NCBI GenBank assembly: GCA_963742495.1
Contig: CAVULZ010000006.1
Location: 93,428-157,427 of the forward strand
Source of the DNA: Terriglobia bacterium
GTDB lineage: Bacteria > Acidobacteriota > Terriglobia > Terriglobales > Acidobacteriaceae
Length of the DNA: 64,000 bases
Direction: 5' to 3'
Shown one piece after another: positions 21,210 to 56,733 of the stretch. Below the pieces are notes generated by a model. It did no database searches, was not told the DNA's origin, and saw only the letters and a program-made list of their open reading frames with translations. Position 1 is the first letter of the stretch. Each line of letters opens with the position of its first letter. Made by a program: the position numbers and the translations under genes.

Positions 21210-21797
21210 TATAAGAACCTCTACAGGAGATGGGGATGGGCGAACCAATCCCTTATTGGCCAGAGGGACTGCGGGGCCTGGGAACGGTCAAATTTCCGAC
21301 TACTCAGTTCTTGAAGATTTACGCTCGACGTGCCAGTTCACTCAGCGGCTGTCTACCCGAAAGAAGGGGACTACTCCGCTCATCACTAACTTTGATGAAA
21401 ACTCAAACCCACGTCCATAAGGCAGCAAGACGTGGCTGAACTGGAATCCGAAGCGGTTGCTGCAAAAATGTTTCCCGACTCCGCATCAAGGACGCGGAGA
21501 CAGAAACCCTGGGTTCGACGAATAGCGGCCCGGGAATACTAACAAAACCGGAGCTAAAAGTCTTGTACCGGCAGCCCTGAATCCCGCACCCGGCGGGCGA
21601 TTTGGCCCATAGGGCAGCGGACGGCCTGATTCCGGAAGAACTGATCACCTTGCTGCCCTGACCGGCCGGGTCTACTTTAGGTCCACAATTTCCGGGGGAT
21701 GGGGTCGAACGGTTAGGAGTACAAAGGGGTATCCGTAGGAGTGCAACGGGAGTAGGTTAGACTCCGTCTGAAGCGGCCGTCCAGGAGGGAAGCCGTC

Positions 21798-34817: not shown

Positions 34818-35280
34818 GATGGCAGCCTCCAAGTAAGGCCGAAACTCTCTTCGGCTCGAAACTTCAGGTGGCCTTTATCGGTACATCGATTGGGATTCTT
34901 CAATGAATGGATCGGGGGGTGAAACTATCGCTGGCCTCTCTAGGTGTCGCACAAGACAAGCCGAGTTTTCGTCGCGTGTAGAGGGACGGAGAACACGCAG
35001 GTGCCCGGCACGGGCCTCGCGGGTTCCACGGCAGGTTCGCCGAAATATCGGCTACCTCCCCCAGGGAGATGGTGCCGCTCGCCGAAACGTGTCTTAAAAG
35101 CCGGAAATGGCCCTATGGCGGCGAATCTTCCCACGGAACGTGCTCAGGGTCATCCCAATGCTGGGCCGCCATTGTCGTGCGCTCGTGCCAGCGAACCCTA
35201 GCACCTGCCTAGCACCACAGGAAAGTCCCAGATCAAGTCCCGTAGGGATGTGCACCAAATCCATATGTTTATTGAAGATT

Positions 35281-35326
35281 TGGTGAGCGCGGAAGGAATC
35301 GAACCTTCAACCTACTGATTAAGAGT
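35281..35326 (-). repeat. distal att repeat: displaced 3' half of a tRNA-Lys gene (anticodon loop to CCA)
   Basis: tggtgagcgcggaaggaatcgaaccttcaacctactgattaagagt is identical to 56734-56779 at 44/46 positions. The two differences (positions 13 and 27) are base-pairing partners in the T-stem. Confidence 0.85.
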
Positions 35327-35479: not shown

Positions 35480-35659
35480 CTCGCAGGAGCCAACTCGTGC
35501 GGTCTGGACAACTGATGGGGGTCAGTCGGTCAAAAATCCGGCTCGTTCTGGCTAAACACCAGTTGAGAATGAAGTCTTGCGCACCGCAGCGGGTCACGAC
35601 CTGAGGATGGAGAAAATATTGTCAGTGCAAAATATGCGATCTTATCGTATATTTTGCAT

Positions 35660-36820
35660 ATGTGGATTCCGCGTGCGGTTGAACCCCGCCTGCAGCGCTC
35701 CGCGAAGACGCGGCCCGTGGTCGTGTTGACTGGAGCCAGACAGACCGGCAAAACCTCCACCTTTCTGCGTCTGTTCCCGAAGCATGTGTTTGTCTCCCTC
35801 GATCTTCCCGTCGAAGCCGAGCAAGCCGAAAAGGAACCGGGCACGTTCCTCCAACGTCATCCTCCGCCCGTCCTTATTGATGAGGTCCAATATGCGCCCG
35901 GCTTGTTCCGGCACCTCAAGGCGGCAGTGGATGCCCACCGTACTCGCAACGGACAATTTCTGCTTACTGGTTCGCAGAAGTTCAGCCTCATGAAGAATGT
36001 TTCCGAATCACTCGCAGGCAGGGCAGACATCGTGGAACTGGAAACCCTTTCCTTTGCCGAGATTCAGTCGGCATTGCCCAAAACCCGGATCGAGACAGCC
36101 GTCGTGCGCGGTGGTTTTCCAGAACTGTACGCCAACCCAGACATTGATTCTGTAGCTTTTTATAATTCCTATCTCGCTACGTATCTCGAACGCGATGTGC
36201 GCTCGTTGACTAATGTTGGCAGCCTGCGGGACTTCGAGAGATTTCTACGCGCCTGCGCACTCCGTTCTGCCAACCTGTTGAACAAAGCCGATCTGGCCCG
36301 CGATGTCGGGATTGCACCTTCAACGGCAAATCATTGGCTGTCCATGCTCGAAGCTTCCGGGCAGATCGTATTGCTTGAGCCGTGGTTTTCGAATCGAACC
36401 AAGTCCATCGTCAAGAGCCCAAAACTCTATCTCTCTGACACGGGTCTGCTTTGCGCCCTGCTGAATATTCGGACCGAGGAAGCTCTACGGCAATCACCCG
36501 CCGTAGGCGCAGTTTGGGAGACGTTTGTTTTCGCCCAGCTTCGGGACCGGGAACGCCGCGCAGGGCGCACGGGCAGCCTTTTCTTCTGGCGTGACCGAAC
36601 CCGCGAAGTGGACTTCGTGGTGGATACTGGTGGACGCTTGGAACTGTTTGAAGCGAAGTGGACGGAACTGCCAGATGTCGGCGATACAGTGAATCTCGAC
36701 TTCGTGCGCAACGTGGTGGGGAAATCACGGGTAGCCGCCGGTGCAGTCGTGTGCCGCGCATCGAGCGGCTTTCCGCTTTCGAATGGATTTCGGGCTGTAC
36801 CCCTGACTGAACTCAGATGA
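35660..36820 (+). CDS. AAA-family ATPase with C-terminal DUF4143 domain
   Basis: The P-loop is LTGARQTGKTST and Walker B-like is VLIDEVQYAP. The architecture is typical AAA_14/DUF4143 (...LLNKADLARDVGIAPSTANHWLSMLEASGQIVLLEPW...VDFVV). The ATG at 35660 is preferred over the TTG at 35654. Confidence 0.85.
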   Translation: MWIPRAVEPRLQRSAKTRPVVVLTGARQTGKTSTFLRLFPKHVFVSLDLPVEAEQAEKEPGTFLQRHPPPVLIDEVQYAPGLFRHLKAAVDAHRTRNGQFLLTGSQKFSLMKNVSESLAGRADIVELETLSFAEIQSALPKTRIETAVVRGGFPELYANPDIDSVAFYNSYLATYLERDVRSLTNVGSLRDFERFLRACALRSANLLNKADLARDVGIAPSTANHWLSMLEASGQIVLLEPWFSNRTKSIVKSPKLYLSDTGLLCALLNIRTEEALRQSPAVGAVWETFVFAQLRDRERRAGRTGSLFFWRDRTREVDFVVDTGGRLELFEAKWTELPDVGDTVNLDFVRNVVGKSRVAAGAVVCRASSGFPLSNGFRAVPLTELR

Positions 36821-36847
36821 ACTTACTTGATGGTGCTGTAGGAACAT

Positions 36848-36989
36848 CTGACATTCCCCGGATAAAGGAATGATTAGCTGAGGCCATTCAGGTCTGTGTC
36901 AAGACCGGGCGAAGCCCGCCGCGTAACGCGGCCGCAGAGTCTTGACACGGACCGGGCTTCGGCTACGCTCTCGGTATCCCGGGGATGGC
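36848..36989 (+). repeat. long-hairpin element, copy A (embedded -35/-10-like hexamers plus multi-stem hairpin)
   Basis: CTGACA-17 nt-TGATTA is followed by stem P1 gctgaggc/gcttcggc (36877-84 / 36956-63). Stem P2 is ggtctgtgtcaagac/gtcttgacacggacc (36891-905 / 36939-53). The small hairpins are cgggc-gaa-gcccg and ccgcg-taa-cgcgg. An outer pairing is cattccccggata / tatcccggggatg. It is colinear with copy B at 50016-50170. Confidence 0.6.
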
Positions 36990-37188
36990 GGTTGGGAATA
37001 GAGTTCAAAGGGACACTGATACGAAACAACTTACACGCGCACGGATGACACCTAAGCGACTGTAAGGTACTGCAAGGAACGCACCGAAGTCCCCAATTTA
37101 GTCCCCAGTCCACATTCAGTTCCTGGTTGGTATGAGCTCTCCATTTTCAGGTGGTTTATGTCGTAGTTTGAACGAGCGTTCCTTTTCA

Positions 37189-37611
37189 CTACTTCGTGAT
37201 TCTGTGTCCACCCGCGGCAGAATGAGCCTTCCGTTTTGTAACGCGACCCGATGTCTGACGCCTTCTGTCAACCCTGACGTGCGCAGTGGTGGGTTCAGAA
37301 GACCCGACAGCAGTAGCAAACGCAGCGGGATTCAGTGCGGTGAGCACAGCGGCTGGATTCCTGTCAATGACAGTGAGCAACGTGCGAGCCGGCGCTTCGG
37401 GGGTCCTCCGCCCGCCCTCCCAGTGCTTGATGGCATCCAGGCTGAACCCAAACGTGTCAGAGAATCTGGCTTGTGTCATGCCAAGTCGATTGCGGATCGC
37501 TTTTACGTCAACCTCCCGGGGCACATGCGCCCTGAATCCTTCTTGCTTCCCAGCAAGAAAAGCCTCAACGTCGTTAAGGCCATCCATCATCTGCTCGAAT
37601 TGCGTTTTCAT
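37189..37611 (-). CDS. higA: HigA-like antitoxin (XRE-type HTH)
   Basis: Trimmed to ATG 37611. It reads [22 protein letters not shown]...[54 protein letters not shown]. It lies directly downstream of the toxin gene (1-nt gap), which is the HigBA order. Confidence 0.75.
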
Positions 37612-37612
37612 G

Positions 37613-37963
37613 CTACCTCCCGTAAGTCTCGAAAACACTATCGGCACGTTTCTTCAGCGCGTTGCGTTCCGCCATCGACAGGTTTTCTTTCTCATTCTTT
37701 GGAAAAACCGTGATGAGAAAAACCGGAAATCTCTCGTTGCGCCAGATATACACAACCCGCGCCCCGCCACTTTTCCCCATTCCCTTGCGCGCCACCCGGA
37801 CCTTTCGAAATCCGCCAGTTCCGCGGATCACGTCTCCACATTCCGGGTCAGCCGCAACGAGTGCCACGATGTCCGCACGCTCCTCCTCGCTAAAGAGCTT
37901 GTTGGCAATGGCGAGGTAAGTGGGCGTCTCGACGACCGTCTGCACAATTCTCTTGTACTCCAT
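37613..37963 (-). CDS. higB: RelE/HigB-superfamily toxin (DUF1044-like)
   Basis: [58 protein letters not shown] is typical of this toxin family. It is 116 aa and lies upstream of the HTH antitoxin. Confidence 0.75.
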
Positions 37964-38306
37964 TGGACACCTTCAGGTCAAGTACGATTGTATGCCATTG
38001 GACACCAATGATTTCGGGTATCTTCCCTGAAAAAGCCCTACAGGCGGCAATTGAGATCCATACGGCGGCTGGTTTGCGATACTCTCGCTTACCGTCAGAA
38101 GCCTCCTATCGCATTCCGCACGTGTGCCTACGGTGTAAAAGGTATTGATTGGAATTACCCTATGTAGCTTATGCGACAAACGCTTACGTCTAGGAATTTC
38201 GGCAAATGGCTCCGAGCCCGGATGTTGAGAATGTCGAACCGAGGACTCTGCGACAGCCGGCAGAGTGAACAGCCAGGGATGAGATGAGTTTCTCTTAGCG
38301 CTTGGC

Positions 38307-39701
38307 CTACAGGAGGTCGGCGATCGCAGCGATACCTCGCTCGATTGTGCTCTCGCTAAGATGGCCGAAGCCGAGCACGAGCTGCGGCGGCCGGGTGCTT
38401 CCAGTTGAGCGGTAGTTACTCATGCCGTAGAGGCCGATGGCCCTGGCCCGAGCCGCAGAGATGACCGCCCGCTCTTCGACTGTGTCCGGGAGGTTCGCCA
38501 CTGCGTGGAAACCCGCTGCGAGCCCACGTAGCTCGACGTGGGGAGCATGCCGCGCCAGGGCCTCCGTGAGCGCTCGGCGCCGACCTTCATACAACGCACG
38601 CATGCGGCGAAGGTGTCTATCATAGCGCCCCGACTCGATCAGCCGGGCCAGTGCGACTTGGTCGAGGCCGGGGGATCCACGATCGTCCAGGTGCTTATCG
38701 CGGGCAATCGCTTCGGCAAGCCTAGGGGGGCAGACGATCCAGCCGATCCTCAGAGCAGGTGCGAGCGTCTTACTGACCGAACTCAAGACAACCACACGGT
38801 CCGGGGCGAGGCCCTGAACTTGCCCGACCGGTTGGCGGTCGTATCGGAACTCGGCATCGTAGTCGTCCTCAATGATAGTCGCGCCGCGCTTGTTCGCCCA
38901 TCCGAGGAGAGCGTGCCGTCGCTCGGGGGCCAGAACACCACCGGTCGGCGACTGATGAGCGGGTGTGAGGACCACGGCGCGCGCATCCGTAGCACCGAGC
39001 GCTTCAACGTCCACACCGTGCTCATCGACCGGGACAGGGATAGCTTCCAACCCGGCCCGGGTGGCGATGGAGCGGTTGTCGGGGTCTCCGGGATCTTCGA
39101 CCGCGATCTGGCGCACGCCTTCTCGGACGAGGGTGCGGAGCACAAGATTGAGGCCCTGTGCAAATCCCGAGCAGATCACCATATTCTGAGAGTTCGCGAC
39201 CGCGCCACGAACCCGGCGCAGGTAGGCGACAAGGACCTCACGTAACGCGATGCTCCCACGTGGTTCGGAATAGCCAAAGGCTTCCGGTGGCGCTCCGCGG
39301 GCAACCTCCCCCAGCGCCCAGAGCCAGTCGCGCCGTGGAAAGCTCGTGAGGTCGGGCACTCCGGGACGGAAATCGACAACAAGCCGCGGCGTGGCAGCGA
39401 TTCGGGGGGACAATTGTGGCACCGCCTGTGCGCTCGCCGCCACGCGAGTGGCGGAGCCCACCCGCGTGATCAAGTACCCTTCGGCCTGGAGTTGCTCGTA
39501 GCACTCCAACGCCAGGCCACGGGAAACACCAAGCTCGCGGGCCAAAGCTCTTGACGAAGGAAGGCGCTCGCCAGCGCTCAAGCGGCCCGAGCGGATCGCC
39601 TCCCGCAACTCCCGCTGGAGCTGCGAACCAAGCGTCTCGCGCAACCCACGGTCAAGGCGGAGGAGGATTTCTGGCCCCAAACCGGCCCACTGAATCGTCA
39701 T
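38307..39701 (-). CDS. MocR-family regulator (GntR wHTH fused to aminotransferase-like PLP domain), copy 1
   Basis: Trimmed to ATG 39701 (MTIQWAGL...). The wHTH reads LPSSRALARELGVSRGLALECYEQLQAEGYLITRVGSATRV. The AAT-like domain has SVSKTLAPALRIGW. The 200-aa N-terminal extension in the ORF track is antisense to the EamA gene. Confidence 0.9.
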   Translation of the reverse strand: MTIQWAGLGPEILLRLDRGLRETLGSQLQRELREAIRSGRLSAGERLPSSRALARELGVSRGLALECYEQLQAEGYLITRVGSATRVAASAQAVPQLSPRIAATPRLVVDFRPGVPDLTSFPRRDWLWALGEVARGAPPEAFGYSEPRGSIALREVLVAYLRRVRGAVANSQNMVICSGFAQGLNLVLRTLVREGVRQIAVEDPGDPDNRSIATRAGLEAIPVPVDEHGVDVEALGATDARAVVLTPAHQSPTGGVLAPERRHALLGWANKRGATIIEDDYDAEFRYDRQPVGQVQGLAPDRVVVLSSVSKTLAPALRIGWIVCPPRLAEAIARDKHLDDRGSPGLDQVALARLIESGRYDRHLRRMRALYEGRRRALTEALARHAPHVELRGLAAGFHAVANLPDTVEERAVISAARARAIGLYGMSNYRSTGSTRPPQLVLGFGHLSESTIERGIAAIADLL

Positions 39702-39771
39702 GGAATTGGATCTTACAATAGGCCAGCTAGTTCGGTACAGTTCGAAATCGGGAGACGCGGAGAACATACCA

Positions 39772-41319
39772 ATGAGCGACGAAATACGAATGGGGCCACA
39801 CGCAAACGCGGACCAAGGTCCTAGCGAATCGCCCATGAGCGCGCGAGCATGGGCCACTTTCGTGGCAGTGGCCGTCCTCTGGGGGATTCCGTACCTATTG
39901 ATCAAGATCGCAGTGGGTGACGGCGTCCCGCCGGCATTCGTTGCGTGGGTGCGGATTCTCCTCGGCGCAGCGATACTGCTGGGGTTGGCTTGGCGGGCGC
40001 GTGTTTTGGGCGGTCTCCGGGGCCGCGTAAAGTGGCTCGCTGCCTTCGCGGTTGCAGAGATCGCCGTACCATTTCCGCTGATCGCGGCCGGTGAGCAGCA
40101 TGTGACTTCATCACTGGCAGCGATTCTCATCGCGACAGCGCCGCTGTTCGTGGCGCTCCTTGCCCTTCGCTTCGACCCAAGCGAACGTCCCTCGCTCCGG
40201 CAGTTGGCCGGGCTCATCCTGGGCCTTGCAGGCGTTAGTGGGCTCGTGGGACTAGACATTGCGGGGCGGGCCGATGAGTTTCTCGGTGCGGCCCCGGTTC
40301 TCACTGCGGCCTTCTGCTACGCCGTCGGCCCGATGATCTTCAAGCGCCGACTGGCCGATCTCGACCGGCGGGCCTCAATGGGCGCGAGCCTCGCCCTCGC
40401 GGCGCTTTTCTTGGCCCCAGCGGCTGCGCTCCACCCGCCCACCGCGGTGCCCTCGGCGAGGGCCATTGTCGCGCTTCTCGGTCTCGCTCTGTTCTGCACA
40501 GCCGCGGCCCTTGTGCTCTGGGGCGCGCTCATCGGGCAAGTGGGAGCGGGCCGGGCGCTTGTTGTGACCTATGTGAATCCACTGGTCGCGGTCGCGCTCG
40601 GCATGGCGATCCTTGGTGAGCGGCCCGGAGTCGGAGCAATCGCCGGCCTGCTACTCATCCTCGGAGGCTCGTGGCTTTCCACCAACGGACACTTGCCGGG
40701 ACGACTCGATCGCTTGGCGATTCTCGCTTCACCTCGTTCGACATTTAAAGCAGAGCAGAGTTCTGGCTGGTCGAGATCGTCCCGAAGCCCAACTCTGAAC
40801 CCTAAACCAGGAGGAATGACAATGCGATTCATGACGACGAACAGGGCCAATAAAAACTCGGAAATGGACACTAGGCAGGATCATATGCTCGTTGCCGCAA
40901 TGGACATGAGGAAGACGACCATGCTGCTGTGGATCGTTCAAGGGCTGCTGGCGGTCCTCTTTCTGTTTGCCGGCGGAATGAAGCTAATCCTGCCACTCGA
41001 CGCGCTGACAAAGCAGATGCCGCTCCCCCTGCCAGGTCTGTTCTTGCGGTTCATCGGCTTGGCAGAGGTGCTCGGCGGGATCGGCCTGATCCTCCCCTCG
41101 CTCCTTCGCATCCGAATGGTTCTGACACCGCTGGCCGCCTGCGGGTTGGTGATCATCATGATCGGTGCAGCGGTGTATACGCTGGCTGGCGGTGGTGGCG
41201 CGGCGGCCCTGATTCCACTGGTGGTGGGGCTCCTCGCGTCATTTGTGGCCTACGGTCGCTGGCGACTGACGCCGCATCGAGGGTACGCGCATGCGTCGCC
41301 TCTCCATTCTGCTGGCTAA
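39772..41319 (+). CDS. EamA/DMT transporter continuing in frame into a DoxX-like membrane domain (fusion or lost stop codon)
   Basis: The 10-TM EamA-like part runs to about 40720 (...LLILGGSWLSTNG). An ~80-aa low-complexity linker follows. The DoxX-like part (MLLWIVQGLLAVLFLFAGGMKL...FIGLAEVLGGIGLILP) is preceded by an internal AGGAGG plus ATG at 40816/40822. The start codon is uncertain (39772, 39790 or 39835). Confidence 0.7.
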   Translation: MSDEIRMGPHANADQGPSESPMSARAWATFVAVAVLWGIPYLLIKIAVGDGVPPAFVAWVRILLGAAILLGLAWRARVLGGLRGRVKWLAAFAVAEIAVPFPLIAAGEQHVTSSLAAILIATAPLFVALLALRFDPSERPSLRQLAGLILGLAGVSGLVGLDIAGRADEFLGAAPVLTAAFCYAVGPMIFKRRLADLDRRASMGASLALAALFLAPAAALHPPTAVPSARAIVALLGLALFCTAAALVLWGALIGQVGAGRALVVTYVNPLVAVALGMAILGERPGVGAIAGLLLILGGSWLSTNGHLPGRLDRLAILASPRSTFKAEQSSGWSRSSRSPTLNPKPGGMTMRFMTTNRANKNSEMDTRQDHMLVAAMDMRKTTMLLWIVQGLLAVLFLFAGGMKLILPLDALTKQMPLPLPGLFLRFIGLAEVLGGIGLILPSLLRIRMVLTPLAACGLVIIMIGAAVYTLAGGGGAAALIPLVVGLLASFVAYGRWRLTPHRGYAHASPLHSAG

Positions 41320-41435
41320 GCAACAGGCGGAGGCCCCCTCGCCGTGGGGCTTTTGACGATTGCGAATTTGTCGATTCAACGCTGACTGCGTGATGTCAAC
41401 TCAAATAAAGTAGTCCGAGGAATGGAGGTTTTCTT

Positions 41436-41855
41436 GTGAGCAAAGATAGGAAGGTCGGGCACATGTACATCTCGGTAGTGACACTCTATGTTAATGATGT
41501 TGATCGGGCGATCAATTTCTACACAAAGAAACTCGGCTGGGAGAAGACCATGGATGCGCCGATGGGCGACGGCACGCGCTGGGTGACCGTGGCACCTCAG
41601 GGCGGGAAGGAGGCTGCGTTCACCCTGGCGAAGCGTTCCCCACACCGGTCGTCTGCTAAGGACAGCGGGTTCAGTGGCGTAATCATGGAGGTGGACGACG
41701 TCTACCAAACCCATAAGAAGCTCAAGAAGATTGACATTGAATTTACGGAGGGTCCACGGAGCGAACGGTGGGGCGGTTGGGCGATGTTCAAGGACTCGGA
41801 AGGCAACGTTCACGGGCTGCACTCACCAGTACCAGCAAACGTCCGTAGCAGCTAA
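41436..41855 (+). CDS. VOC-family (glyoxalase/bleomycin-resistance/dioxygenase fold) protein
   Basis: MYISVVTLYVNDVDRAINFYTKKLGWEK...RWVTVAP...GVIMEVDDVYQTHKKLKKIDIEFTEGPRSERWGGWAMFKDSEGNVHGL. Confidence 0.85.
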   Translation: MSKDRKVGHMYISVVTLYVNDVDRAINFYTKKLGWEKTMDAPMGDGTRWVTVAPQGGKEAAFTLAKRSPHRSSAKDSGFSGVIMEVDDVYQTHKKLKKIDIEFTEGPRSERWGGWAMFKDSEGNVHGLHSPVPANVRSS

Positions 41856-42048
41856 GAGCGGGGCGCCGCTCGAAACGCTCTTTCCGGTCATTTTCGGCGT
41901 GTTAATGTGGCGGAGATTTTGTTTGTGGACTGCGATACGTTTCCTCTGCGAAGTTAGCTCGCCTGAAGCTACGGGCTGCACTGGAAACAGAGCCACTGAA
42001 GTGTGCACCTATGACACAATTCAAGCTTCGACAACGAGGATCACGACG

Positions 42049-42903
42049 GTGACACGAGACCAGAAGTACGAGGCATTCCGGGCGCTCCATGAACGACCTG
42101 GCGCCTTTGTGATACCAAATCCGTGGAACGCAGGAACGGCAAGGATTCTGACGGCCTTGGGTTTCGAAGCTCTTGCGACGACGAGCGCCGGTTTCGCCTT
42201 CGCCATCGGACGCCGGGACTCCGCAGCAAGCCTTACACGGAATGAGATTCTGGAGAATGCCAAGGCCATTGTCGACGCAACTCATTTGGCCGTTTCAGCT
42301 GATCTGGAAGACGGATTCGGCCCTTCGCCTGAAATGTGCGCAGAAACCATTCGCCTCGCGTCAGATATCGGCCTGGTTGGGGGATCAATTGAGGATGCCA
42401 CAGGGGATGCGAAAGATCCCATTTATGAGTTCCAACTTGCGGTGGAGCGGGTCGCGGCGGCGGCGAAGACGGCTCATGATTGCCAGTTCATGCTGACCGC
42501 AAGAGCCGAGAACTTCCTTCATGGCCTTCCCGACCTAGACGATACCATACGGCGATTGCAATCCTTTGCCGAGGTTGGCGCGGATGTTCTCTACGCGCCA
42601 GGGCTCCCGAGCCTCGAAGCCATCCGAGACGTTTGCGCGTCGGTTTCCAAGCCCGTCAACGTCGTTATGGGCTTGAAGGGGGCTACGTTTTCCGTAGAAG
42701 AGCTGGCTGCTGCCGGAGTAAAGCGGATCAGCGTCGGTGGAGCCTTAGCCCGCGCCGCCCTGGGAGCATTTGTGCGAGCTGCGCGCGAAGTGAAAGACAA
42801 AGGAACTTTCATTTTTGCGGCGGATGCTCTTCCTCATGCGGAGGCGAAGGGCTATATGTCACATGTCAAATTAGACAGTCGGCTTCCTGGCCGTCTGGCG
42901 TGA
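42049..42903 (+). CDS. isocitrate lyase/PEP mutase-family protein (2-methylisocitrate-lyase-like)
   Basis: The start was set at GTG 42049 (GAGGA 8 nt upstream). It reads FRALHERPGAFVIPNPWNAGTARILTALGFEALATTSAGFAFAIGRRD...AVSADLEDGFG. The ORF-track extension to 41731 overlaps the VOC gene. Confidence 0.8.
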   Translation: MTRDQKYEAFRALHERPGAFVIPNPWNAGTARILTALGFEALATTSAGFAFAIGRRDSAASLTRNEILENAKAIVDATHLAVSADLEDGFGPSPEMCAETIRLASDIGLVGGSIEDATGDAKDPIYEFQLAVERVAAAAKTAHDCQFMLTARAENFLHGLPDLDDTIRRLQSFAEVGADVLYAPGLPSLEAIRDVCASVSKPVNVVMGLKGATFSVEELAAAGVKRISVGGALARAALGAFVRAAREVKDKGTFIFAADALPHAEAKGYMSHVKLDSRLPGRLA

Positions 42904-42919
42904 GGTCGCCGAGCGTACT

Positions 42920-43372
42920 TCATTTTTCCTCGTCAGTGTGCCAACCCGGATTGGTCCACCTTCCATGCTGCCAAACAAAGATCTCAGTCACTCGGCTTGA
43001 ACCGGATGATCGTTTCCCGTCAACCTCGATTTCCACAACATAGCTGCTCCAGACGATGGCGACATCGCCAAAGTGCTGCACCTCGGTGCGGGGGAATTCA
43101 AGCCGGAGCAGCCTACCGCCTTTGGCATGAAATTCGGTAGCAGTGCGAAGCACATCGGCTTGGTTCTTCCATTTGTCCTCGCCACCACTCATGACGATCG
43201 TCTCAGGTGGCACCAATTCCTCAAGTGTCTCTGTGTCGCCGGCAAACCATGCGCGCCAGACCGTTTCACGTACTTTGAGAAGCTCATCATCCGACGGGGA
43301 TGCTCCTGCCATCGAGATCAGTAACACCGGCAGAATGATGATGGCAACGCTAACTCGGAGAATACGAGGCAT
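42920..43372 (-). CDS. SnoaL-like/DUF4440 (NTF2 fold) protein, secreted
   Basis: Trimmed to ATG 43372 (AGGAG upstream). A signal peptide is present (MPRILRVSVAIIILPVLLISMAGA). It reads VRETVWRAWFAGDTETLEELVPPETIVM...FVWQHGRWTNPGWH. Confidence 0.7.
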   Translation of the reverse strand: MPRILRVSVAIIILPVLLISMAGASPSDDELLKVRETVWRAWFAGDTETLEELVPPETIVMSGGEDKWKNQADVLRTATEFHAKGGRLLRLEFPRTEVQHFGDVAIVWSSYVVEIEVDGKRSSGSSRVTEIFVWQHGRWTNPGWHTDEEK

Positions 43373-43425
43373 TCTCTTTCTCCTAGGTAGCTCGGCTGCA
43401 GAATGGGGCCACCGATTGGACGTTT

Positions 43426-44379
43426 TCATGATTCGCAACTCCGGGCGACAAGCGTCGACGACTGGCAATGTTCGACGTCAAGTTTCTGACTGATCTGCGG
43501 GCGGCGCATGAACCACGCGCCAGCCACGCAGACTATGCTGCCGAAGATGGAGAGCGTCGCAACATGCTCACCCCGTACCAGGATTCCGAGTAGGAGCGCG
43601 ACGGGAGGGATCAAGAACGCTGTTGACGACGCGCGCGTGGCTCCGACTCTCCCAGCGGCTGTGGCCAGCAAAACGAATGCGACTCCGGTCCCGAACGCTC
43701 CTAAGATCAGTAGCGAGACGAAGGGCACCAGTGTCCAGCGTGCAGAGAGCACATCGGGTACACCGAGCGGCGCGGTCAACATCACTGCGACAGTCTGTGC
43801 GCGAAGGATCACCGAAAGGGCTCCGTACCGCTGCTGCAAGGGACGGGCAAGATTCAATGCGAATCCGTAGGAGCTAACCGCCGCCAGGATCAGTAAGACC
43901 CCGACGACACTGCTATGACCTTCATGGATCGTCGGCAAAGCAAGCAGCCCGGCTCCCATCAATCCGATGGTCAAACCCGCGATCACTCGGCGTTCGGGAA
44001 CTCGACGGGCGATGGCGGTGGCAACGATGGCGGTAAAAAGGGGGACGACGGCGTTCAACATGCCGGTCAGGGCCGACGACACTCTCTGCTCGGCGAATGG
44101 GAACATACTCAGAGGGAAGGCAAACCACAAAACGCCCACCACAGCGATTCCCGGCCATGCTGACCACTCTACTGGCTTGCGCGCGGCGGGAAACAATGCC
44201 AGGGTTGCAAACCCGATGAACAGACGGACGAAGGTGACGCCGTTAGGTCCAATCGACTTCAATCCCTCGGCGATAAACAGAAAGGATGCGCCCCAGATGA
44301 GTCCGGGGATTGCAACCACCAGCCAGTCTGCGGACAGGACGATCCGGCTCCAACTCGATGCGTGTCTTAGCTCGTTCAT
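43426..44379 (-). CDS. EamA/DMT-family transporter
   Basis: The protein has a 10-TM profile and reads IPGLIWGASFLFIAEGLKSIGPNGVTFVRLFIGFATLALF. Trimmed to ATG 44379. Confidence 0.85.
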   Translation of the reverse strand: MNELRHASSWSRIVLSADWLVVAIPGLIWGASFLFIAEGLKSIGPNGVTFVRLFIGFATLALFPAARKPVEWSAWPGIAVVGVLWFAFPLSMFPFAEQRVSSALTGMLNAVVPLFTAIVATAIARRVPERRVIAGLTIGLMGAGLLALPTIHEGHSSVVGVLLILAAVSSYGFALNLARPLQQRYGALSVILRAQTVAVMLTAPLGVPDVLSARWTLVPFVSLLILGAFGTGVAFVLLATAAGRVGATRASSTAFLIPPVALLLGILVRGEHVATLSIFGSIVCVAGAWFMRRPQISQKLDVEHCQSSTLVARSCES

Positions 44380-44467
44380 ACTATGTCCACTCCTGTGCAC
44401 CAACCATCGCCATGGAAGTTAAGCTCTCGCGACACATACTTGCCTCTAGAACTCCCGCAGAATGTAT

Positions 44468-44956
44468 TCACGAGTTCGCCTCGGACTTCCGGTTCTGATA
44501 AAGCGCCAGCAACATCGCTCCTGCGGATGCGGAAAACACGGAATAGTCCATCGGAGATTTGACGCCGAAGGAGATCGCCATAGAGATGCCGAACATCGCC
44601 AACAACAGTGCGGCACCGAGGGCCACCCAGCGCGGCCAAAGACCAAGGATGAGCCCGATGCCAAGGGACGTTTCAGCCACTGTGGCTGCCCATGCCAGGA
44701 ATGGTATGGCGAATGCCGGCATGAAGGAATTGACTTCTGCCGTGTACTTCGTGAAATTGGCGAAGTTTCCCCAGCCACCATACTTGCCCCAGAGACCGAA
44801 GCGGTCGGCTACGGCGGACAGAAAGGCAGCGCCAAGCGCGATACGGGCGTACAGGATTCCCCCCCGCTCTAACACTTGCAGCCGTTCCGGAGTCAGAATA
44901 GGAAAGGCGTTAGCCGACGTGGGGTGGGACGGAGTCAGAGCTGCATCGGTCATCAT
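44468..44956 (-). CDS. DoxX-family membrane protein
   Basis: YARIALGAAFLSAVADRFGLWG...FLAWAATVAETSLGIGLILGLWPRWVALGAALLLAMFGISM. The start overlaps the stop of the upstream cupin gene by 1 nt. Confidence 0.8.
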   Translation of the reverse strand: MMTDAALTPSHPTSANAFPILTPERLQVLERGGILYARIALGAAFLSAVADRFGLWGKYGGWGNFANFTKYTAEVNSFMPAFAIPFLAWAATVAETSLGIGLILGLWPRWVALGAALLLAMFGISMAISFGVKSPMDYSVFSASAGAMLLALYQNRKSEANS

Positions 44957-45423
44957 TACTTACCTCTCTCGGTTTTGGAGTCCGGCACCGGCACGCTGAG
45001 CGGCGTGTCGTGATCACAAATCAAGTACGCGACCAACTTTGCCGGTTCCGTTGAACTTGCATTGGCGGAGACGAGATGAATGCCGTTGGGTGCCTCGTAG
45101 AAGCTCTCACCGGCCTTGTAGATCACCTCCGGCTCGCCGTTTACTTGGGTTCGGAGCGCCCCTTCGACGACGTAGCCAATGACTGCGCAAGGATGGGAAT
45201 GCGGTGACGATGCCTCGCCTGGGCCGTAGTTAACTTCCACCAGTACCGCCTTCAGGTGGTCGCCATCCAGTTTAGATAGCGATCTGGAGAGCACAATTCG
45301 CGCTCGATCTTTTGCCTGGGGGTGAGCACTGGTCTCTTGGCCTGATGCAAAACTTGCTGCGAACAACCCCCCGCAAAGAGTCACAGCAGCGACGCTGATT
45401 CGGCTTCTGATCGAACTCATCAC
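44956..45423 (-). CDS. secreted cupin-domain protein
   Basis: It has a signal peptide. The cupin motifs are GEASSPHSHPCAVIGYVVEGAL and GESFYEAPNGIHLVSAN. Confidence 0.8.
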   Translation of the reverse strand: MMSSIRSRISVAAVTLCGGLFAASFASGQETSAHPQAKDRARIVLSRSLSKLDGDHLKAVLVEVNYGPGEASSPHSHPCAVIGYVVEGALRTQVNGEPEVIYKAGESFYEAPNGIHLVSANASSTEPAKLVAYLICDHDTPLSVPVPDSKTERGK

Positions 45424-45502
45424 CCACCCCGCAAGGTGTACGATAAACTATGGTGGATCAGGTACAAGATCCACTTTCCGATTTTATGTATGTACCACTT
45501 TT

Positions 45503-47029
45503 ATGGCGAAACTGGCAGCGGCATTCGAACTTGCTCTTCCATTTAACAACTCAGGACTGCCGGCCTATCGCTGGCTCTATTCCTCCTTACGCGATGAGAT
45601 TCTGCATGGTCGCTTGCGGCCAGGGGCACGGCTCCCATCTACTCGCGCGTTGGCAATCCAGTACGGGCTGGCGCGAGGAACGATTGTCAATGCTTTCGAA
45701 CAGCTCAAGTCCGAGGGCTATATTGAAGGCAGCGTGGGGTCGGGCACCCAAGTCAATAAGGTCTTGCCGGAGAGACTGCTCCAGATCTCGCCCGGACCTC
45801 CAGCGTCTGAGCCTGCCACGAATCCCGCATTGCACCGAAAGCGGCAGCTCGCGATTTCAGATTACGGTCGACGGGCAAAGCTATTTGGGGGTTATGAGAA
45901 TCGTCCGACCCGCGCCTTCCGTGCCAACCTGCCAGCTTTAGATCTGTTTCCCGTGGCGCGGTGGACAAAGATCACGCTCCACTGCTTACGTCGACTTTCG
46001 AGACGCCAACTGATGGGATGCGATCCTCTGGGATACATTCCGCTTCGGCAAGCGGTGGCAGAGTACTTGATCCGGTCGCGAGGGGTGAGATGTATGCCAG
46101 AGCAAGTGGCAATAGTCTCTGGCGTGCAGGAAGCACTCGACCTGACCGCTCGACTGTTCTTGAATCCCGGAGATCGGGTGTGCGTGGAGGACCCCGGATA
46201 CCCTGGCGCAGTCATGGCGTTTCAGGCATTCCGCGCAAGGATCGTTGCCGCCGGGGTGGATGACGAGGGGATAGAGGTCCGTCGGCTTCCGTCTCAGGGA
46301 GTTCGGTTGATTTACACAACACCTGGGCATCAGTTCCCCTTGGGAACCACGATGAGCTTGGCGCGGCGACTGCAACTGCTGGAGTGGGCACGGAAGTCGG
46401 GAGTGGTAATTTTTGAAGACGATTATGACAGCGAGTACCGTTACTCGGGTCGGCCGATTCCAGCACTGCAGGGGCTCGATGACGGCGGGTTGGTTCTCTA
46501 TGCGGGCAGTTTCAGCAAGGTGCTGTTTCCCGCGCTCCGCCTTGGATATCTGGTGATTCCAGTCGACTTATTGCATCACTTCGAAGCGATCCTTTCGTTG
46601 ACCTCCCGTCACGCGACGCTGTTGGAGCAGCTCGTGCTCACTGACTTCATCATCGAGGGCCACTTCGGGCGACACCTGCGGCGCATGCGCGAGATATATG
46701 CTGAGCGTCTTTCGGTACTTTTGGAAGAGGCACGCCTGAGACTCGTCGGTTTACTGGAAATCTCAGAGGTCGAAGCTGGCTTGCAGACTATCGGATGGCT
46801 CGGTGGTGGAATCGACACCGAATCTGCGACCGCTGCTGCAGCAAAACGCAGTGTGGATGTGACTCCAGTGGATCGCTACAGCCAAGGCAGAGTCGCGACA
46901 CAGGGATTGCAGCTGGGATTTGCTGCGGTGGACGTGAAGGAGATCCGTCGCGGAGTTCGGGAGCTCGCGATCGCGCTGGACAGCGAACAGAAGGCCTTGC
47001 ATAGCGGCTCGCAGAAGTCTCGGCGGTGA
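45503..47029 (+). CDS. MocR-family regulator, copy 2
   Basis: The wHTH reads LPSTRALAIQYGLARGTIVNAFEQLKSEGYIEGSVGSGTQV. The AAT-like domain has SFSKVLFPALRLGY. It is divergent from the cupin-DoxX-EamA-DUF4440 operon. Confidence 0.9.
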   Translation: MAKLAAAFELALPFNNSGLPAYRWLYSSLRDEILHGRLRPGARLPSTRALAIQYGLARGTIVNAFEQLKSEGYIEGSVGSGTQVNKVLPERLLQISPGPPASEPATNPALHRKRQLAISDYGRRAKLFGGYENRPTRAFRANLPALDLFPVARWTKITLHCLRRLSRRQLMGCDPLGYIPLRQAVAEYLIRSRGVRCMPEQVAIVSGVQEALDLTARLFLNPGDRVCVEDPGYPGAVMAFQAFRARIVAAGVDDEGIEVRRLPSQGVRLIYTTPGHQFPLGTTMSLARRLQLLEWARKSGVVIFEDDYDSEYRYSGRPIPALQGLDDGGLVLYAGSFSKVLFPALRLGYLVIPVDLLHHFEAILSLTSRHATLLEQLVLTDFIIEGHFGRHLRRMREIYAERLSVLLEEARLRLVGLLEISEVEAGLQTIGWLGGGIDTESATAAAAKRSVDVTPVDRYSQGRVATQGLQLGFAAVDVKEIRRGVRELAIALDSEQKALHSGSQKSRR

Positions 47030-47165
47030 GCGATCCGCACGGAGACCGGATTCCGGGAGGTTTGTTTGAATGCTAAGTCTAGCGAGGAGCGCGTGGTGTA
47101 CAAAAGGCTGAACTCAACGGAACGTTGATTCAGAGAACTACCGCGGAGGCTCCTCAGCGGACACT

Positions 47166-47350
47166 ATGTATTACGTCGGGCTGGATGTTCACAAGAAGAC
47201 GATCAGCTACTGCGTCAAAGCGGGCGGCTCCCATCAGGAAGGCAAGGTGGGAGCGACGCGACGCGAACTGGATGCTGGATCAAGACTCTTCCACAACCAC
47301 GGACGATTCACCGGCTGGATCTACGATCATCTGCTTGCGCACGCAAACTC
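47166..47350 (+). pseudogene. IS110-family transposase N-terminal remnant
   Basis: MYYVGLDVHKKTISYCVKAGG...GKVGATRRELD...FTGWIYDHLLAHA matches the DEDD-type IS110 N-terminus. It is shortened internally and loses similarity after about 60 codons. No C-terminal domain is present. Confidence 0.6.
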
Positions 47351-47630
47351 CCGAGGCGCCCTTCGGATTGTTTTAGGACTGGCAGCGAACACAGACTCAA
47401 CCTTCGGTGACGTCCTTCAGGGGCCCGAGACAGCGAATGAATGTCCGCTTCTGCGAAGGCAGGAACCACCGCCGAGAGGCATACCTGCGAGCTGCGGATA
47501 CTGGCGAGTACGGTGGTGCGCGCTCCTCCGAAGCGCGCGTCAGGAGAACTGTGTTTTTCCCTTGACAAAGACTTACACGGATGTCGGCTAACCCGGACTC
47601 CCCCCGGGCCATTTGCAACGCGAAGGCCGA

Positions 47631-48005
47631 TCACGACTGTTGCTTGCTCTCGTTGTGGGTCAGGAAAATTAACTCATTACCATCGAAATCCTTCACAGCC
47701 ACCCATCGCTCCAGCGAAGACGAGTTGAAGCCGCGGCTGCCCTCCAATCCTTTTGCGCGTAACGCGGCAATCGTCTTTTCCAGATCATCTACCAAGACGC
47801 CTATATTGTTGGGTTGCCCCGAGGTGCCTGGGGCCAGGAGGTCGATGCAGATCGGGACGCCCGCAATCTCGATCTGCACAAATTCCTTGGGACTCTCTCG
47901 CAGAACTTTGCAACCGAGCACGGTAATCCAGAATTGGCGTGCTCGTTCCAGGTCTCGCGTGTAGATCGTCACGAATTCAAGCCGCCGGATCGATAGGTTT
48001 TCCAT
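47631..48005 (-). CDS. VOC-family (glyoxalase-like) protein
   Basis: RLEFVTIYTRDLERARQFWITVLGCKV...IGVLVDDLEKTIAALRAKG...VAVKDFDGNELIFL. It is divergent from MocR copy 3. Confidence 0.8.
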   Translation of the reverse strand: MENLSIRRLEFVTIYTRDLERARQFWITVLGCKVLRESPKEFVQIEIAGVPICIDLLAPGTSGQPNNIGVLVDDLEKTIAALRAKGLEGSRGFNSSSLERWVAVKDFDGNELIFLTHNESKQQS

Positions 48006-48237
48006 AGTTCCTTTCAGCCCTAATTAGGGGAGCTCAAATTCTCAGAACGATTCCAAAATCCTCCGAACACATCTCGCAGGAGTATTTGCAAAATCCATGA
48101 AATCACTGTAGTCGCGTACAATGGATATCCACAAGATCCATTTTATGTACTTGTGTTGGATCCATTGTGGAAACTGAATCGATCTGCAACCCATCTGGCG
48201 CGTCTCTCGCGAGTGGAGCCCAGTCGATCCTCGGTCT

Positions 48238-49725
48238 TTGAATATGACAAAGGTTGCAGTTGAGGTCAGGTTGCCCTGGCTCCGACTCGATGAACGCGAT
48301 CCAAGACCTCTCTCCCGCCAGCTCTACGATGGGATTCGTCAAGCCGTTCTGGGTGGGAGGCTGCGGCCCGGAAATCGATTGCCGTCGACGAGGGCCTTTG
48401 CCACCGAATTCGGAATTTCAAGAAACACCATCACAAATGCATATGAGCAATTGCTCTCCGAAGGGTATCTCGACGCACGAGTTGGCGCAGGTACGCGCGT
48501 AGCCCAATCGCTTCCGGGCTTGCTGGCCAAGAGTGCCCAAGCCTACTTGGAACCACGACGCTCAGAGCGGCACCTTCTGTCGAAACGTGGAAAAACGATA
48601 GCCGGTTGGCGCGTGAGGCCTTTGCGTGCGCCACATCAACCGAGCCCTTTTGAAGCTGGACTTCCCGACTCACAGATCTTTCCGTATGCAATTTGGCGGA
48701 GATTGATCAGTCGCCACTGGCGGCGGCCTCACTACGAACTCCTAGGGTATGGCGATCCCGCTGGATACCGACCCCTGCGCGAGGCCATCGCATCGTACCT
48801 TCGTTCAGCACGTGCTGTGAGGTGCGAAGCCGATCAGGTTTTCATTGTCAACGGTTCGCAGCAGGCGTTGAACCTGAGCGCGCAACTCTTGATCGACCCC
48901 GGCGATCCAGTATTGATTGAGAATCCAGGATATTCGGGGGCCGGCTTTGCTTTGGAGGCAGCCGGAGCGCGACTCGTCCCTTTGCCAGTTGACGACAATG
49001 GCGTCAGACTGCCCGGCCAACGCCAAATCGAAAGAAACGCGCGTCTCATTTTTGTCACTCCGTCTCATCAATTTCCTCTCGGAGTCACCCTAAGCCTGGC
49101 CCGCCGGCTGGAATTGGTGGAGTGGGCGCGTCGTCGTCACGCCTGGATTCTCGAAGATGACTACGACAGCGAGTACCGCTATCAGGGGAAGCCTCTGCCG
49201 TCCTTGCAGGGTCTCGACCAATCCGGGCGTGTCATTTATATGGGTAGCTTCAGCAAGACTCTTTTTCCATCGCTTCGACTCGGTTTCATGGTCCTGCCGA
49301 ACGACCTTGTCGAGCCGTTCCGGCGTGCTCGCTCGGTGTTGGATGTTCATTCACCCTTGTTCGAACAGGCAGTATTGGCGGACTTCGTGGCCGAGGGGCA
49401 TTTCGCTCGGCATGTCCGGCGCATGCGCTCCCTCTACGGGAATCGGCAGGCAGCCCTGCTCGAAGCGGCCAAAAACGAACTCGCCGGCTTTTTGCAGATA
49501 GAATCCGCCGACGGCGGGATGCACGTGGTCGGATGGCTCCCGAAGGGTGCAAGCGATGTGCGCGCTTATCAGAGTGCGGCGGCACACGGGATCTTCACTT
49601 GGCCCCTTTCCTACTGCTCGCTGCGAAAACTTTCCCGAGGAGGGCTTATGCTCGGGTACGCCGGGCTGAACGAGCGTCAAATACTTGACGGGGTCCGGAG
49701 GCTGGCCGCGGCACTCCACGTTTAA
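48238..49725 (+). CDS. MocR-family regulator, copy 3
   Basis: The wHTH reads LPSTRAFATEFGISRNTITNAYEQLLSEGYLDARVGAGTRV. The AAT-like domain has SFSKTLFPSLRLGF. Confidence 0.9.
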   Translation: MNMTKVAVEVRLPWLRLDERDPRPLSRQLYDGIRQAVLGGRLRPGNRLPSTRAFATEFGISRNTITNAYEQLLSEGYLDARVGAGTRVAQSLPGLLAKSAQAYLEPRRSERHLLSKRGKTIAGWRVRPLRAPHQPSPFEAGLPDSQIFPYAIWRRLISRHWRRPHYELLGYGDPAGYRPLREAIASYLRSARAVRCEADQVFIVNGSQQALNLSAQLLIDPGDPVLIENPGYSGAGFALEAAGARLVPLPVDDNGVRLPGQRQIERNARLIFVTPSHQFPLGVTLSLARRLELVEWARRRHAWILEDDYDSEYRYQGKPLPSLQGLDQSGRVIYMGSFSKTLFPSLRLGFMVLPNDLVEPFRRARSVLDVHSPLFEQAVLADFVAEGHFARHVRRMRSLYGNRQAALLEAAKNELAGFLQIESADGGMHVVGWLPKGASDVRAYQSAAAHGIFTWPLSYCSLRKLSRGGLMLGYAGLNERQILDGVRRLAAALHV

Positions 49726-50015
49726 GGTCCGCCCTATTTTCACAATCAATAAACATCGAAAATAGGCGATATTGACATGAGCTGGCGTCGGGGCAGTACA
49801 ACCACCGCCGGGCCGACTGCGAGACCGGGGTCAAGCTCCTGCAGTAGTATCTTCCCGGGTGCGCGTGCTCTGCGGGACGTTGAGATCGAGGACCTCGAGT
49901 GCCAGATCTCCTCCAACAGGACAGCGGTTCTTGCACTGTCTCGATGTGTAAGAGGACAATTGCCATTAACAGCGATTCATCTTGGGGCGGAGCCCGTTTC
50001 GTAGAACTAGAAAAA

Positions 50016-50170
50016 TTGACATTCCGCGGATAGCTGAATAATAAGCCGAGGCGCAAAGGCCAGTGTCAAGGCTCTTCGACCGCGAACGCGGCGCGCGAAG
50101 CGCGGCCTTGACACTGGCCGGGCCTCGGCTATGCTCTGGCTATCCGGGGCATGTCATTCGGGGAATTCAG
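50016..50170 (+). repeat. long-hairpin element, copy B (embedded TTGACA-17-TAATAA plus multi-stem hairpin)
   Basis: TTGACA (50016-21), a 17-nt spacer and TAATAA (50039-44) come first. P1 is gccgaggc/gcctcggc (50045-52 / 50122-29). P2 is ggccagtgtcaaggc/gccttgacactggcc (50058-72 / 50105-19). The inner hairpins are ccgc-gaac-gcgg and cgcgc-gaa-gcgcg. The outer pairing is tgacattccgcggatagc / gctatccggggcatgtca. The element ends 3 nt before the relaxase stop codon. Confidence 0.6.
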
Positions 50171-53812: not shown

Positions 53813-54104
53813 TGGACAAACCGCCTTGTTGCACTACTGCCCTTAATTCCAATGCGACTAAACTTCGCAATTGTTAGTTCACATCAAGTTCTTGCGCTTC
53901 AACGCGTTTACGTGATCGACGATGGGCAGCGCTTTGTCGCAAACAAAAATCATTGTTCGACATCGCAGTCACTCAGCAGGCGACGAATTTTGTTGATGCA
54001 GCGAAAGTTAACCGGCGTAAACATCGAAGCGCTGTCTGGCGCGCCGCAGTTCCCAATTTGGGGGTGACGTGTCCACCCTTCTTCCGGTGCGAAGCACCGC
54101 GTTC

Positions 54105-56689: not shown

Positions 56690-56733
56690 CTGGAAAAATC
56701 GGTTTGCAAATCACCGGTAAGTGATTGAAAAGA

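Follow-up and report, generated by a model that had tools for sequence, protein, structure and literature searches.

A conserved hairpin beside the relaxase gene of mobilizable islands in Acidobacteriota: a possible single-strand priming signal

Why would a mobile island carry two copies of the same elaborate hairpin, 13 kb apart and on the same strand? The question is raised by a 64-kb stretch of a Terriglobia bacterium genome (contig CAVULZ010000006.1 of GenBank assembly GCA_963742495.1; hereafter the window). It contains an integrated island of about 21.4 kb with a MOBF relaxase gene and two hairpin copies of roughly 150 nucleotides (nt), A and B. An initial annotation had described them as colinear, equally oriented and folded into several stems that differ mainly by paired substitutions. 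We propose, with somewhat less than even confidence, that the hairpin is a single-strand priming signal akin to the Frpo and sso elements of other mobile DNA, a cis-acting DNA site of integrative mobilizable elements of Acidobacteriota.

The features on which the argument rests are the following.

36848-36989, + strand: hairpin copy A, A-type lineage (sequence, alignment, fold and covariance model).
36891-36905 and 36939-36953, + strand: the two arms of stem P2 in copy A.
36942-36969, + strand: promoter-like motif of copy A, made up of TTGACA (36942-36947), a 16-nt spacer and TACGCT (36964-36969), read from the sequence.
50016-50170, + strand: hairpin copy B, B-type lineage (sequence, alignment, fold and covariance model).
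50058-50119, + strand: stem P2 of copy B, GGCCAGTGTCAAGGC / GCCTTGACACTGGCC, enclosing two inner GC hairpins (RNA and single-stranded DNA folds).
50108-50135, + strand: promoter-like motif of copy B, made up of TTGACA (50108-50113), a 16-nt spacer and TATGCT (50130-50135), found by consensus scan.

The two copies are indeed colinear on the + strand, with 79% identity by pairwise alignment, and they share one multi-stem fold: an outer stem P0, an internal loop, a stem P1, and a 15-bp stem P2 with two small GC hairpins inside it. Folded as RNA, copy A reached -82.6 kcal/mol (z = -7.2) and copy B -92.8 kcal/mol (z = -8.9), and none of 200 shuffles did as well. As single-stranded DNA (ssDNA), the energies were -39.1 kcal/mol (z = -5.1) and -56.1 kcal/mol (z = -10.3), respectively. 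The outer stem of copy A is weakened and its P1 includes two G.T pairs, while copy B ends 3 nt short of the relaxase stop codon (50173-50175). The finer details given in the initial annotation were also recovered. All three P2 changes are present (T:A to C:G, T.G to A:T and A:T to G:C), both G.T pairs in P1 of copy A correspond to G:C in copy B, the order of the inner hairpins is swapped, and the 3' side of the internal loop is the same in both copies (TA[C/T]GCTCT, written TAYGCTCT below). The window yielded exactly two matches in pattern searches, for which the expected number was zero. A covariance model run with filters off scored copy B at 178 bits (50014-50169) and copy A at 125 bits (36846-37003), followed by a next best match of 12 bits. 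Matches on the mirror strand reached only 87 and 69 bits, so the hairpin is not symmetric.

Relatives of the hairpin were collected with two DNA pattern scans. The genome scan, fixed on the P2 core only, returned at least 118 loci, almost all in metagenome-assembled genomes (MAGs) of Acidobacteriota; its full-length homologues came from at least 92 loci and comprised 94 copies with 84 distinct sequences. The metagenome scan, fixed on P1 only, returned at least 120 loci, of which 8 were chance matches in GC-rich coding DNA, and supplied 103 distinct homologues for counting base pairs. A search with the relaxase protein gave at least 8000 clusters. Because this protein family is so abundant, the matches listed were all at least 90% identical, and divergent sampling therefore came from the two DNA scans and a plasmid match described below.

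Altogether, the family that the initial annotation had left to a wider search occupies about 200 or more genome and metagenome loci of Acidobacteriota. It falls into two lineages, A-type and B-type, whose inner-loop types recur across many species and match window copies A and B. The A-type homologues include loci L006, L013, L027, L031, L047, L097, L113 and L215, and B-type homologues with 95-99% identity occur in dozens of species. The covariance model found no further divergent copies beyond two weak matches of 28-29 bits, at L173 and L182. At both loci the weak match is a second one, same-stranded and about 1.2 kb off, as would be expected had an insertion divided the hairpin element. At these two loci and at L017, L054, L063, L064, L071, L084 and L096, unrelated sequence (GGCGGATCATCCCATT|AGCTG) stands in place of the 5' arm of the outer stem.

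That the fold is under selection, as previously claimed, is borne out by these homologues: 93-95% of stem cells were paired in the sets of 84 and 103 distinct sequences, compared with 27-43% when partners were slid. The accompanying picture of a preserved structure with drifting sequence failed. B-type copies have a median identity of 97% to window copy B, and P1 almost never varies; identity falls to 88-90% in the adjoining relaxase DNA and to 86% in the intergenic stretch upstream of the neighboring NikA-like gene. Two-sided changes were common at only three P2 pairs and covariation was limited to 3-5 pairs, one P2 pair showing all four types (A:U, U:A, G:C and C:G). Neither strand is favored by the mismatches, since 24 mismatch types were G.T and 20 were A.C. 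The sole match to Rfam (15), whose models include motifs associated with Acidobacteria, at the gathering threshold in the window was a tRNA, and at E ≤ 10 the two hairpin regions produced only weak matches far below gathering scores, mainly to microRNA and small nucleolar RNA models.

Two earlier suppositions can be narrowed on this basis. Of RNA and ssDNA, both previously considered as the folding molecule, ssDNA is favored and nothing specific to RNA was seen, there being neither an Rfam match nor a wobble bias. The view that the copies did not arise by local duplication stands. They did not diverge by compensatory drift in place, and instead represent two widespread lineages. We conclude that the hairpin is a sequence-constrained DNA site with a real fold and no drifting RNA structure.

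The 3' arm carries a promoter-like motif. In copy B it matches the promoter consensus at 10 of 12 positions. Across 194 distinct copies, the first hexamer was TTGACA in 169, TTGACT in 14 and TTGACG in 8; the spacer measured exactly 16 nt in every copy; and the second hexamer was TAnnnT in 190. The opposing stretch of the 5' arm varied in length from 11 to 13 nt over the same copies. Each box could be sampled without bias, as the genome scan left the -10 side free and the metagenome scan the P2/-35 side. With P2 free, TTGAC was invariant in 101 of 103 copies, and the sixth -35 base shifted to T, G or C, usually uncompensated, with 23 unpaired cells at pair 69:126. With the loop free, T1, A2 and T6 of the -10 box were kept and positions 3-4 were free to vary. 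This conservation profile fits promoter boxes: TTGAC is invariant, the sixth base is free, and the -10 box keeps T1, A2 and T6. In the fold, the -35 box lies within the perfect P2 stem, the spacer within P1, and the -10 box on the conserved 3' side of the internal loop, the 5' side of which drifts (CTGAATAATAAG, AGGAATGATAAG, ATGAAGCCTAAG and others). P0 is then the downstream duplex.

The position of the hairpin is fixed as well. In nearly all of about 90 genome loci, compared with the window proteins by tblastn, an A- or B-type hairpin stands 10-40 nt past the stop codon of a convergent relaxase gene. Every island has one or two copies, at a single position and in a single orientation; neither target-site duplications nor copies scattered elsewhere in the genome were seen. 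This rules out a miniature inverted-repeat transposable element (MITE). The ordinary MITE or repetitive extragenic palindromic (REP) repeat that the initial annotation had named as an alternative is thereby dismissed. Where two copies occur (the window, L009/L140 and L230), both have the same orientation. Fold, motif, conservation profile, fixed position and fixed strand were all established in this analysis.

Comparison of loci also bears on why the window has two copies. A DUF4143 ATPase gene, the hairpin and the relaxase gene are contiguous in L097, L113, L115 and L215, where the 13-kb cargo is absent, so the cargo of the window is an addition. In L215 the ATPase gene is followed by an A-type hairpin with the unusual right end of copy A and then directly by the relaxase gene. 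L009 and L140 retain a 93-amino-acid relaxase remnant between their two hairpin copies. On these grounds we interpret the window copies as the product of a fusion between two related islands. A relaxase remnant was looked for beside window copy A and none was found.

A second conserved non-coding site lies upstream of the relaxase operon and provides the polarity on which our reading depends. The features concerned are listed here.

50173-52935, - strand: MOBF (TrwC/TraI-type) relaxase-helicase gene (Pfam TrwC, 3e-82; PDB matches to TrwC and TraI; NCBIfam MobF above cutoff).
53384-53812, - strand: NikA-like ribbon-helix-helix relaxosome accessory gene (Pfam PF21983, 36.3 bits against a cutoff of 27).
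54046-54099, + strand: nic-like block GGGGTGACGTGT, a predicted origin of transfer (oriT) separate from the hairpin (conservation; comparison with the F and R388 nic sites).
54052-54062, + strand: small hairpin CCCAATTTGGG of the block, CCCA-ATT-TGGG, whose closing pair covaries.
54064-54072, + strand: F-like nic core GTGACGTGT.
54085-54099, + strand: second hairpin of the block, CGGTGCGAAGCACCG.
54105-55274, - strand: gene g54105, encoding a 389-amino-acid protein with no Pfam or NCBIfam match.

The block (GCAGTTCCCAATTTGGGGGTGACGTGTCC...CGGTGCGAAGCACCG) is situated between the g54105 stop codon and the NikA-like gene, with GTAAAC repeats nearby. It is conserved in at least 52 loci (e.g., L239, 9001-9042), including relaxase-less modules whose proteins are 31-48% identical. 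Its core, GTGACGTGT or GTGGAGTGT, agrees with the F nic site GTGGGGTGT/GG at 7-8 of 9 positions and carries the G17, T18 and G22-T23-G24-T25 found throughout MOBF. MOBF systems usually place oriT upstream of the accessory and relaxase operon, which is then transferred last, and the block, lying upstream of the NikA-like/relaxase operon, holds this usual position. Wherever both sites were seen, the block was to the right of the hairpin and on the same strand.

The intergenic region upstream of the NikA-like gene also led, by blastn, to the Granulicella tundricola plasmid pACIX904. This plasmid encodes a MobF relaxase 67% identical and a NikA-like protein 39% identical to the window homologues, and it has the same block about 260 nt upstream of its mob operon, with similar GTAAAC repeats. 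In the 18 kb around its MobF gene, the covariance model with filters off detected no hairpin, and blastn gave none either. Hence, the relaxase family keeps the block and can do without the hairpin. By analogy with known nic sites, the block is the likely oriT of the island family and of pACIX904, and it is a better oriT candidate than the hairpin.

We infer from this arrangement the nic site, the transferred strand, the use of RNA polymerase and the priming step. The GGGGTGACGTGT strand would be the one nicked, by analogy with F and R388, which makes the promoter-bearing + strand the predicted transferred strand. In the scheme that we propose, the MOBF relaxase would nick the F-like site upstream of its own operon, at about 54072 in the window, and the + strand would be displaced or transferred 5' to 3' with the relaxase operon last. 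Once single-stranded, the hairpin region would fold into P0, P1 and P2 and so rebuild a duplex promoter of the sigma-70 type, in which TTGACA is paired in P2, the 16-nt spacer is held by P1, TAnnnT sits in a pre-opened loop, and P0 serves as the downstream duplex. Host RNA polymerase would start in P0 with the 5' arm as template and make a short RNA toward lower coordinates. This RNA could prime synthesis of the complementary strand back over DNA that had already entered, after which the island would be double-stranded and able to integrate. The retention of the hairpin in relaxase-less derivatives counts in favor of this scheme.

Several observations weigh against a priming signal. The nic site, and hence the transferred strand, is predicted by analogy. 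The hairpin would lie about 80% of the way along that strand, outside the leading region where Frpo elements lie, and neither copy matched any of 72,556 PLSDB plasmids, including the Frpo-bearing F-like plasmids, by blastn in distant mode. No extended -10 box or UP element was found with the hairpin promoter, and when double-stranded the motif amounts to an ordinary promoter directed antisense into the relaxase gene. The P1 spacer is nearly invariant in sequence, which a promoter does not need and which suggests that a protein reads P1. At position 5 the -10 box nearly always has C, and two bases past the hexamer are also conserved. The TAYGCTCT loop resembles the R388 nic 8-mer TATTGTCT at 6 of 8 positions. 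There is no excess of G.T over A.C, and strand-specific folding is therefore invisible in the mutation pattern. Finally, both DNA scans were pattern-ascertained and their copies are mostly close relatives, so that few events underlie the covariation counts. A promoter calls for neither an invariant P1, nor the C at -10 position 5, nor the conserved bases after the hexamer, and these features keep alive two rivals in particular, an oriT and a protein operator.

The rival that fares best, though we regard it as unlikely, holds that the hairpin is itself the origin of transfer, with the relaxase binding the proximal arm of P1 and nicking after TAYGCTCT. In the window, two such origins would flank the cargo, perhaps as a result of relaxase-mediated integration between oriT copies; TrwC does make cointegrates with two oriT copies (PMC3264647), but two direct copies should also be prone to relaxase-driven deletion. 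The geometry is like that of R388, an inverted repeat followed by 8 nt and then nic: the P1 arm GCCTCGGC precedes TAYGCTCT, a G supplies the purine at +1, and TATGCTCT agrees with TATTGTCT at 6 of 8 positions. Position 20 is variable, and T18 and T23 are kept. However, the hairpin has C17 and C22 and thus neither G17 nor the G22/GTGT core of MOBF nic sites. This rival could account for the invariance of the P1 sequence, for the hairpin being the most conserved non-coding stretch beside the relaxase gene, and for its persistence in relaxase-less derivatives. Yet the same module holds an equally retained block with the canonical core and position, and pACIX904, despite its 67%-identical relaxase, keeps that block and not the hairpin. 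The layout is also reversed, as a hairpin downstream of the relaxase gene would send that gene in first. Relaxases of a second clade adjoin both CTCTG and CTGCT loop variants, again contrary to a nic site at the loop. Accordingly, the oriT assignment first suggested by the R388-like 8-mer was demoted on account of the F-like block at the canonical position and the hairpin-less plasmid. Recombination breakpoints at the putative hairpin nic were considered as well and rejected, since variants L005, L010, L034 and the L017 group break at assorted positions.

A role at the RNA level is improbable. The hairpin could be a terminator or 3'-end stabilizer for the relaxase operon (- strand) and the convergent gene, or a discrete structured non-coding RNA. 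It does sit between convergent genes at nearly all loci, its RNA fold is very stable, and on the - strand copy B is followed by AUUUUUC. Against this, a consensus scan detected no intrinsic terminator at either copy, and a U-tract follows some copies only. Near-complete conservation, extending to loop bases and a one-sided conserved loop, would be unexpected of a terminator. No Rfam family matched even at E ≤ 10, and the strand bias of G.U type that folding RNA would leave was not seen. The promoter-like motif is moreover inside the 3' arm, so its own transcript would not contain the fold.

We consider it more doubtful still that the site works as duplex DNA, either as an ordinary sigma-70 promoter or as a palindromic operator for a protein such as the NikA-like or g54105 product. 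Its effect would then be an antisense RNA against the relaxase 3' end, or insulation of the cargo from the transfer genes. TTGACA-16-TATGCT would indeed pass as a normal promoter at 10 of 12 positions, GTCAAG/CTTGAC is a perfect palindrome invariant on both arms, and the neighboring pair often loses complementarity uncompensated, which would be tolerable if the arms were duplex half-sites. On the other hand, P2 has true compensatory changes, with four Watson-Crick types at one pair, and 93-97% pairing in P0, P1 and P2 over 150 nt points to pairing within one strand. Read as duplex, the promoter has no conserved gene or RNA downstream of it, and the downstream DNA differs in relaxase-less modules. 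A search for a small conserved gene downstream of the hairpin promoter gave no credible candidate; the open reading frames (ORFs) there look non-coding.

A recombination or cargo-capture site, or a self-spreading MITE/REP-like repeat, is very improbable: the DNA left of the hairpin does differ by locus right up to the outer stem, two direct copies bracket the 13 kb of window cargo, and L009/L140 and L230 also have two copies, but islands hold one or two copies in fixed position and orientation with neither target-site duplications nor scattered copies, and the two-copy cases are explained by island fusion followed by deletion (the L009/L140 remnant; L215). We give equally little credence to a dual-purpose site, in which the hairpin primes synthesis and also offers, in its TAYGCTCT loop, a secondary nic that the MOBF relaxase cuts and rejoins, so that hairpins of different islands recombine strand-specifically. 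If true, it would be the cassette-exchange point behind both the variable cargo that starts at the left edge of the hairpin and the two-copy arrangements, similar to an integron attC site but driven by a relaxase.

The remaining features of the island place the hairpin in its genetic setting.

35271-56809, no strand assigned: the whole integrated mobilizable element (tRNA-Lys repeat ends, integrase, gene content).
36990-50015, no strand assigned: 13-kb cargo between copies A and B.
55553-56665: tyrosine integrase gene.
56734-56809, - strand: tRNA-Lys(CTT) gene.

As the initial annotation had stated, both hairpin copies are inside a mobile element. The ends of this island are a 56-nt direct repeat of the tRNA-Lys 3' end (35271-35326 and 56724-56779). 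No type IV secretion genes were found in 35271-56809, so the island is mobilizable and not self-transmissible. It also encodes a 106-amino-acid protein. The gene contexts previously given were correct: copy A lies between the DUF4143 ATPase gene (35654-36820, +) and an MqsA/HigA-like antitoxin gene (37189-37647, -), and copy B between a MocR-type regulator gene (48238-49725, +) and the TrwC-type relaxase gene (50173-52935, -).

The cargo comprises genes for a HigBA-like toxin-antitoxin pair, MocR regulators, a phosphoenolpyruvate (PEP) mutase, an EamA transporter, a DoxX protein and a cupin protein. This content suggests a small-molecule, possibly phosphonate-related, metabolic cassette. The toxin-antitoxin pair (37189-37963, -) opens the cargo directly right of copy A; its antitoxin is HigA/MqsA/NadS-like (37189-37647), and the 116-amino-acid upstream ORF at 37613-37963 is the putative toxin. 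Two MocR-type regulator genes (GntR plus aminotransferase) occur in the cargo, at 38307-40304 (-) and 48238-49725 (+), and a third is implied for the ORF at 45503-47029 (+) only by the earlier label "mocR3".

The g54105 protein is present in every module variant at 48-95% identity, and its N-terminus looks ribbon-helix-helix-like (…ISIRISEELRERLE…). Its gene would be the first to enter on the predicted transferred strand.

Relaxase-less islands differ in gene content. In the group of L029, L067, L089 and L111, the hairpin is accompanied by NikA-like, g54105-like and integrase genes, and in the L004 group by a relaxase stub along with g54105-like and integrase genes. Compact islands preserving hairpin and nic-like block together with genes for an integrase and a g54105-like protein were noted at L004, L032, L035, L042, L104, L029, L067, L089, L111, L133, L151, L153, L223 and L225, some of which also retain the NikA-like gene. 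These islands are candidates for mobilization in trans by the abundant relaxase-encoding islands.

Other repeats and hairpins were encountered along the way. Outside the island, window positions 18834-20036 contain two 300-nt direct repeats, 68% identical and 903 nt apart, which are an internal repeat of a large protein encoded by an 872-amino-acid ORF (18630-21248, -). A third hairpin family with TTGACA in its stem occurs at L114 (2662-2717) and L038 (2470-2524), and the 3' side at L114 reads TTGACA-16 nt-TAAGAT. The DNA pattern used for the hairpin also caught an unrelated multi-copy family composed of a 20-bp hairpin, GGTCGGGNCGGTGTCAAGGG/CCCTTGACACCGNCCCGGCC, and a second hairpin. It forms a conserved non-coding end of about 350 nt just 3' of a transposase gene assigned to the IS110 family by Pfam DEDD_Tnp_IS110 and Transposase_20. 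This family was seen at L011, L039, L050, L052, L056, L059, L060, L073, L075 (about 1100-1500), L076, L078, L082, L092, L099 and L106, with at least 8 copies in one MAG. This end had no match in Rfam and is possibly of the bridge/seek-RNA kind.

A literature search turned up no earlier account of the hairpin family, and nothing of its sort is known to have been described in Acidobacteriota, a phylum whose conjugation biology is essentially unexplored. The conversion of ssDNA to duplex in mobilizable islands that have neither primase nor replicon is almost unstudied outside ICEBs1 and F-like plasmids, and the hairpin provides a small and well-delimited candidate for such a signal. Soil and peat metagenomes are rich in islands of this family, as judged by relaxase protein clusters and both DNA scans, and the analysis also yielded an oriT prediction for them. 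Relaxase-less islands that keep both cis sites make trans mobilization possible, which matters for how gene flow in soil is read.

How, then, does the hairpin compare with known systems? Its relation to R388 oriT is partial. Both have an inverted repeat, an 8-nt tract alike at 6 of 8 positions and a following purine (in R388, the IR2 hairpin and TATTGTCT/A; PMC4176350), and the adjacent relaxase is a TrwC homologue. Unlike R388 oriT, the hairpin has the wrong position and polarity relative to the relaxase operon and no G17 or G22, a separate block with the MOBF core GTG..GTGT holds the canonical position, and a plasmid with a 67%-identical relaxase does without the hairpin.

The sso elements are closer in placement. 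In ICEBs1, sso1 lies immediately downstream of the relaxase gene, measures about 200 nt, has three stem-loops and is orientation-specific (PMC4595007). Like sso1 and the ssoA/ssoT-type origins of rolling-circle plasmids, the hairpin is a non-coding multi-stem-loop of about 150-200 nt just past a relaxase gene. Its orientation is likewise fixed with respect to the relaxase gene and the nic-like block, and recruitment of the host polymerase is predicted here by analogy. The hairpin differs in belonging to another phylum with no sequence relationship, and the ICEBs1 relaxase is of the Rep_trans/MOBT type whereas that of the island is MOBF. The sso motifs RSB and CS-6 are not evident in the hairpin, although no search aimed at them was made.

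In mechanism, the nearest relatives would be the Frpo/ssi single-strand promoters of F-like conjugative plasmids, reportedly described by Masai and Arai in 1997. Frpo hairpins mimic duplex -35 and -10 boxes (Samuel et al. 2024, PMC11541004). Similarly, the island element is a long imperfect hairpin on the (here predicted) transferred strand that would rebuild duplex -35 and -10 boxes; by the same analogy it would work only on single-stranded DNA and depend on strand and orientation, and several copies per element are possible. In contrast to Frpo/ssi, it is shorter, at about 150 nt, has no sequence similarity by blastn against the 72,556 plasmids, and encloses two small inner hairpins within the P2 stem that bears its -35 box. 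It is carried by mobilizable islands of Acidobacteriota, Frpo/ssi by plasmids of Proteobacteria. It is also outside the leading region and has no gene downstream, for which reasons it would prime DNA synthesis rather than express early genes. Hence, the kind of element is known from Frpo/ssi and sso, and the hairpin would be a new, sequence-unrelated family with an architecture of its own.

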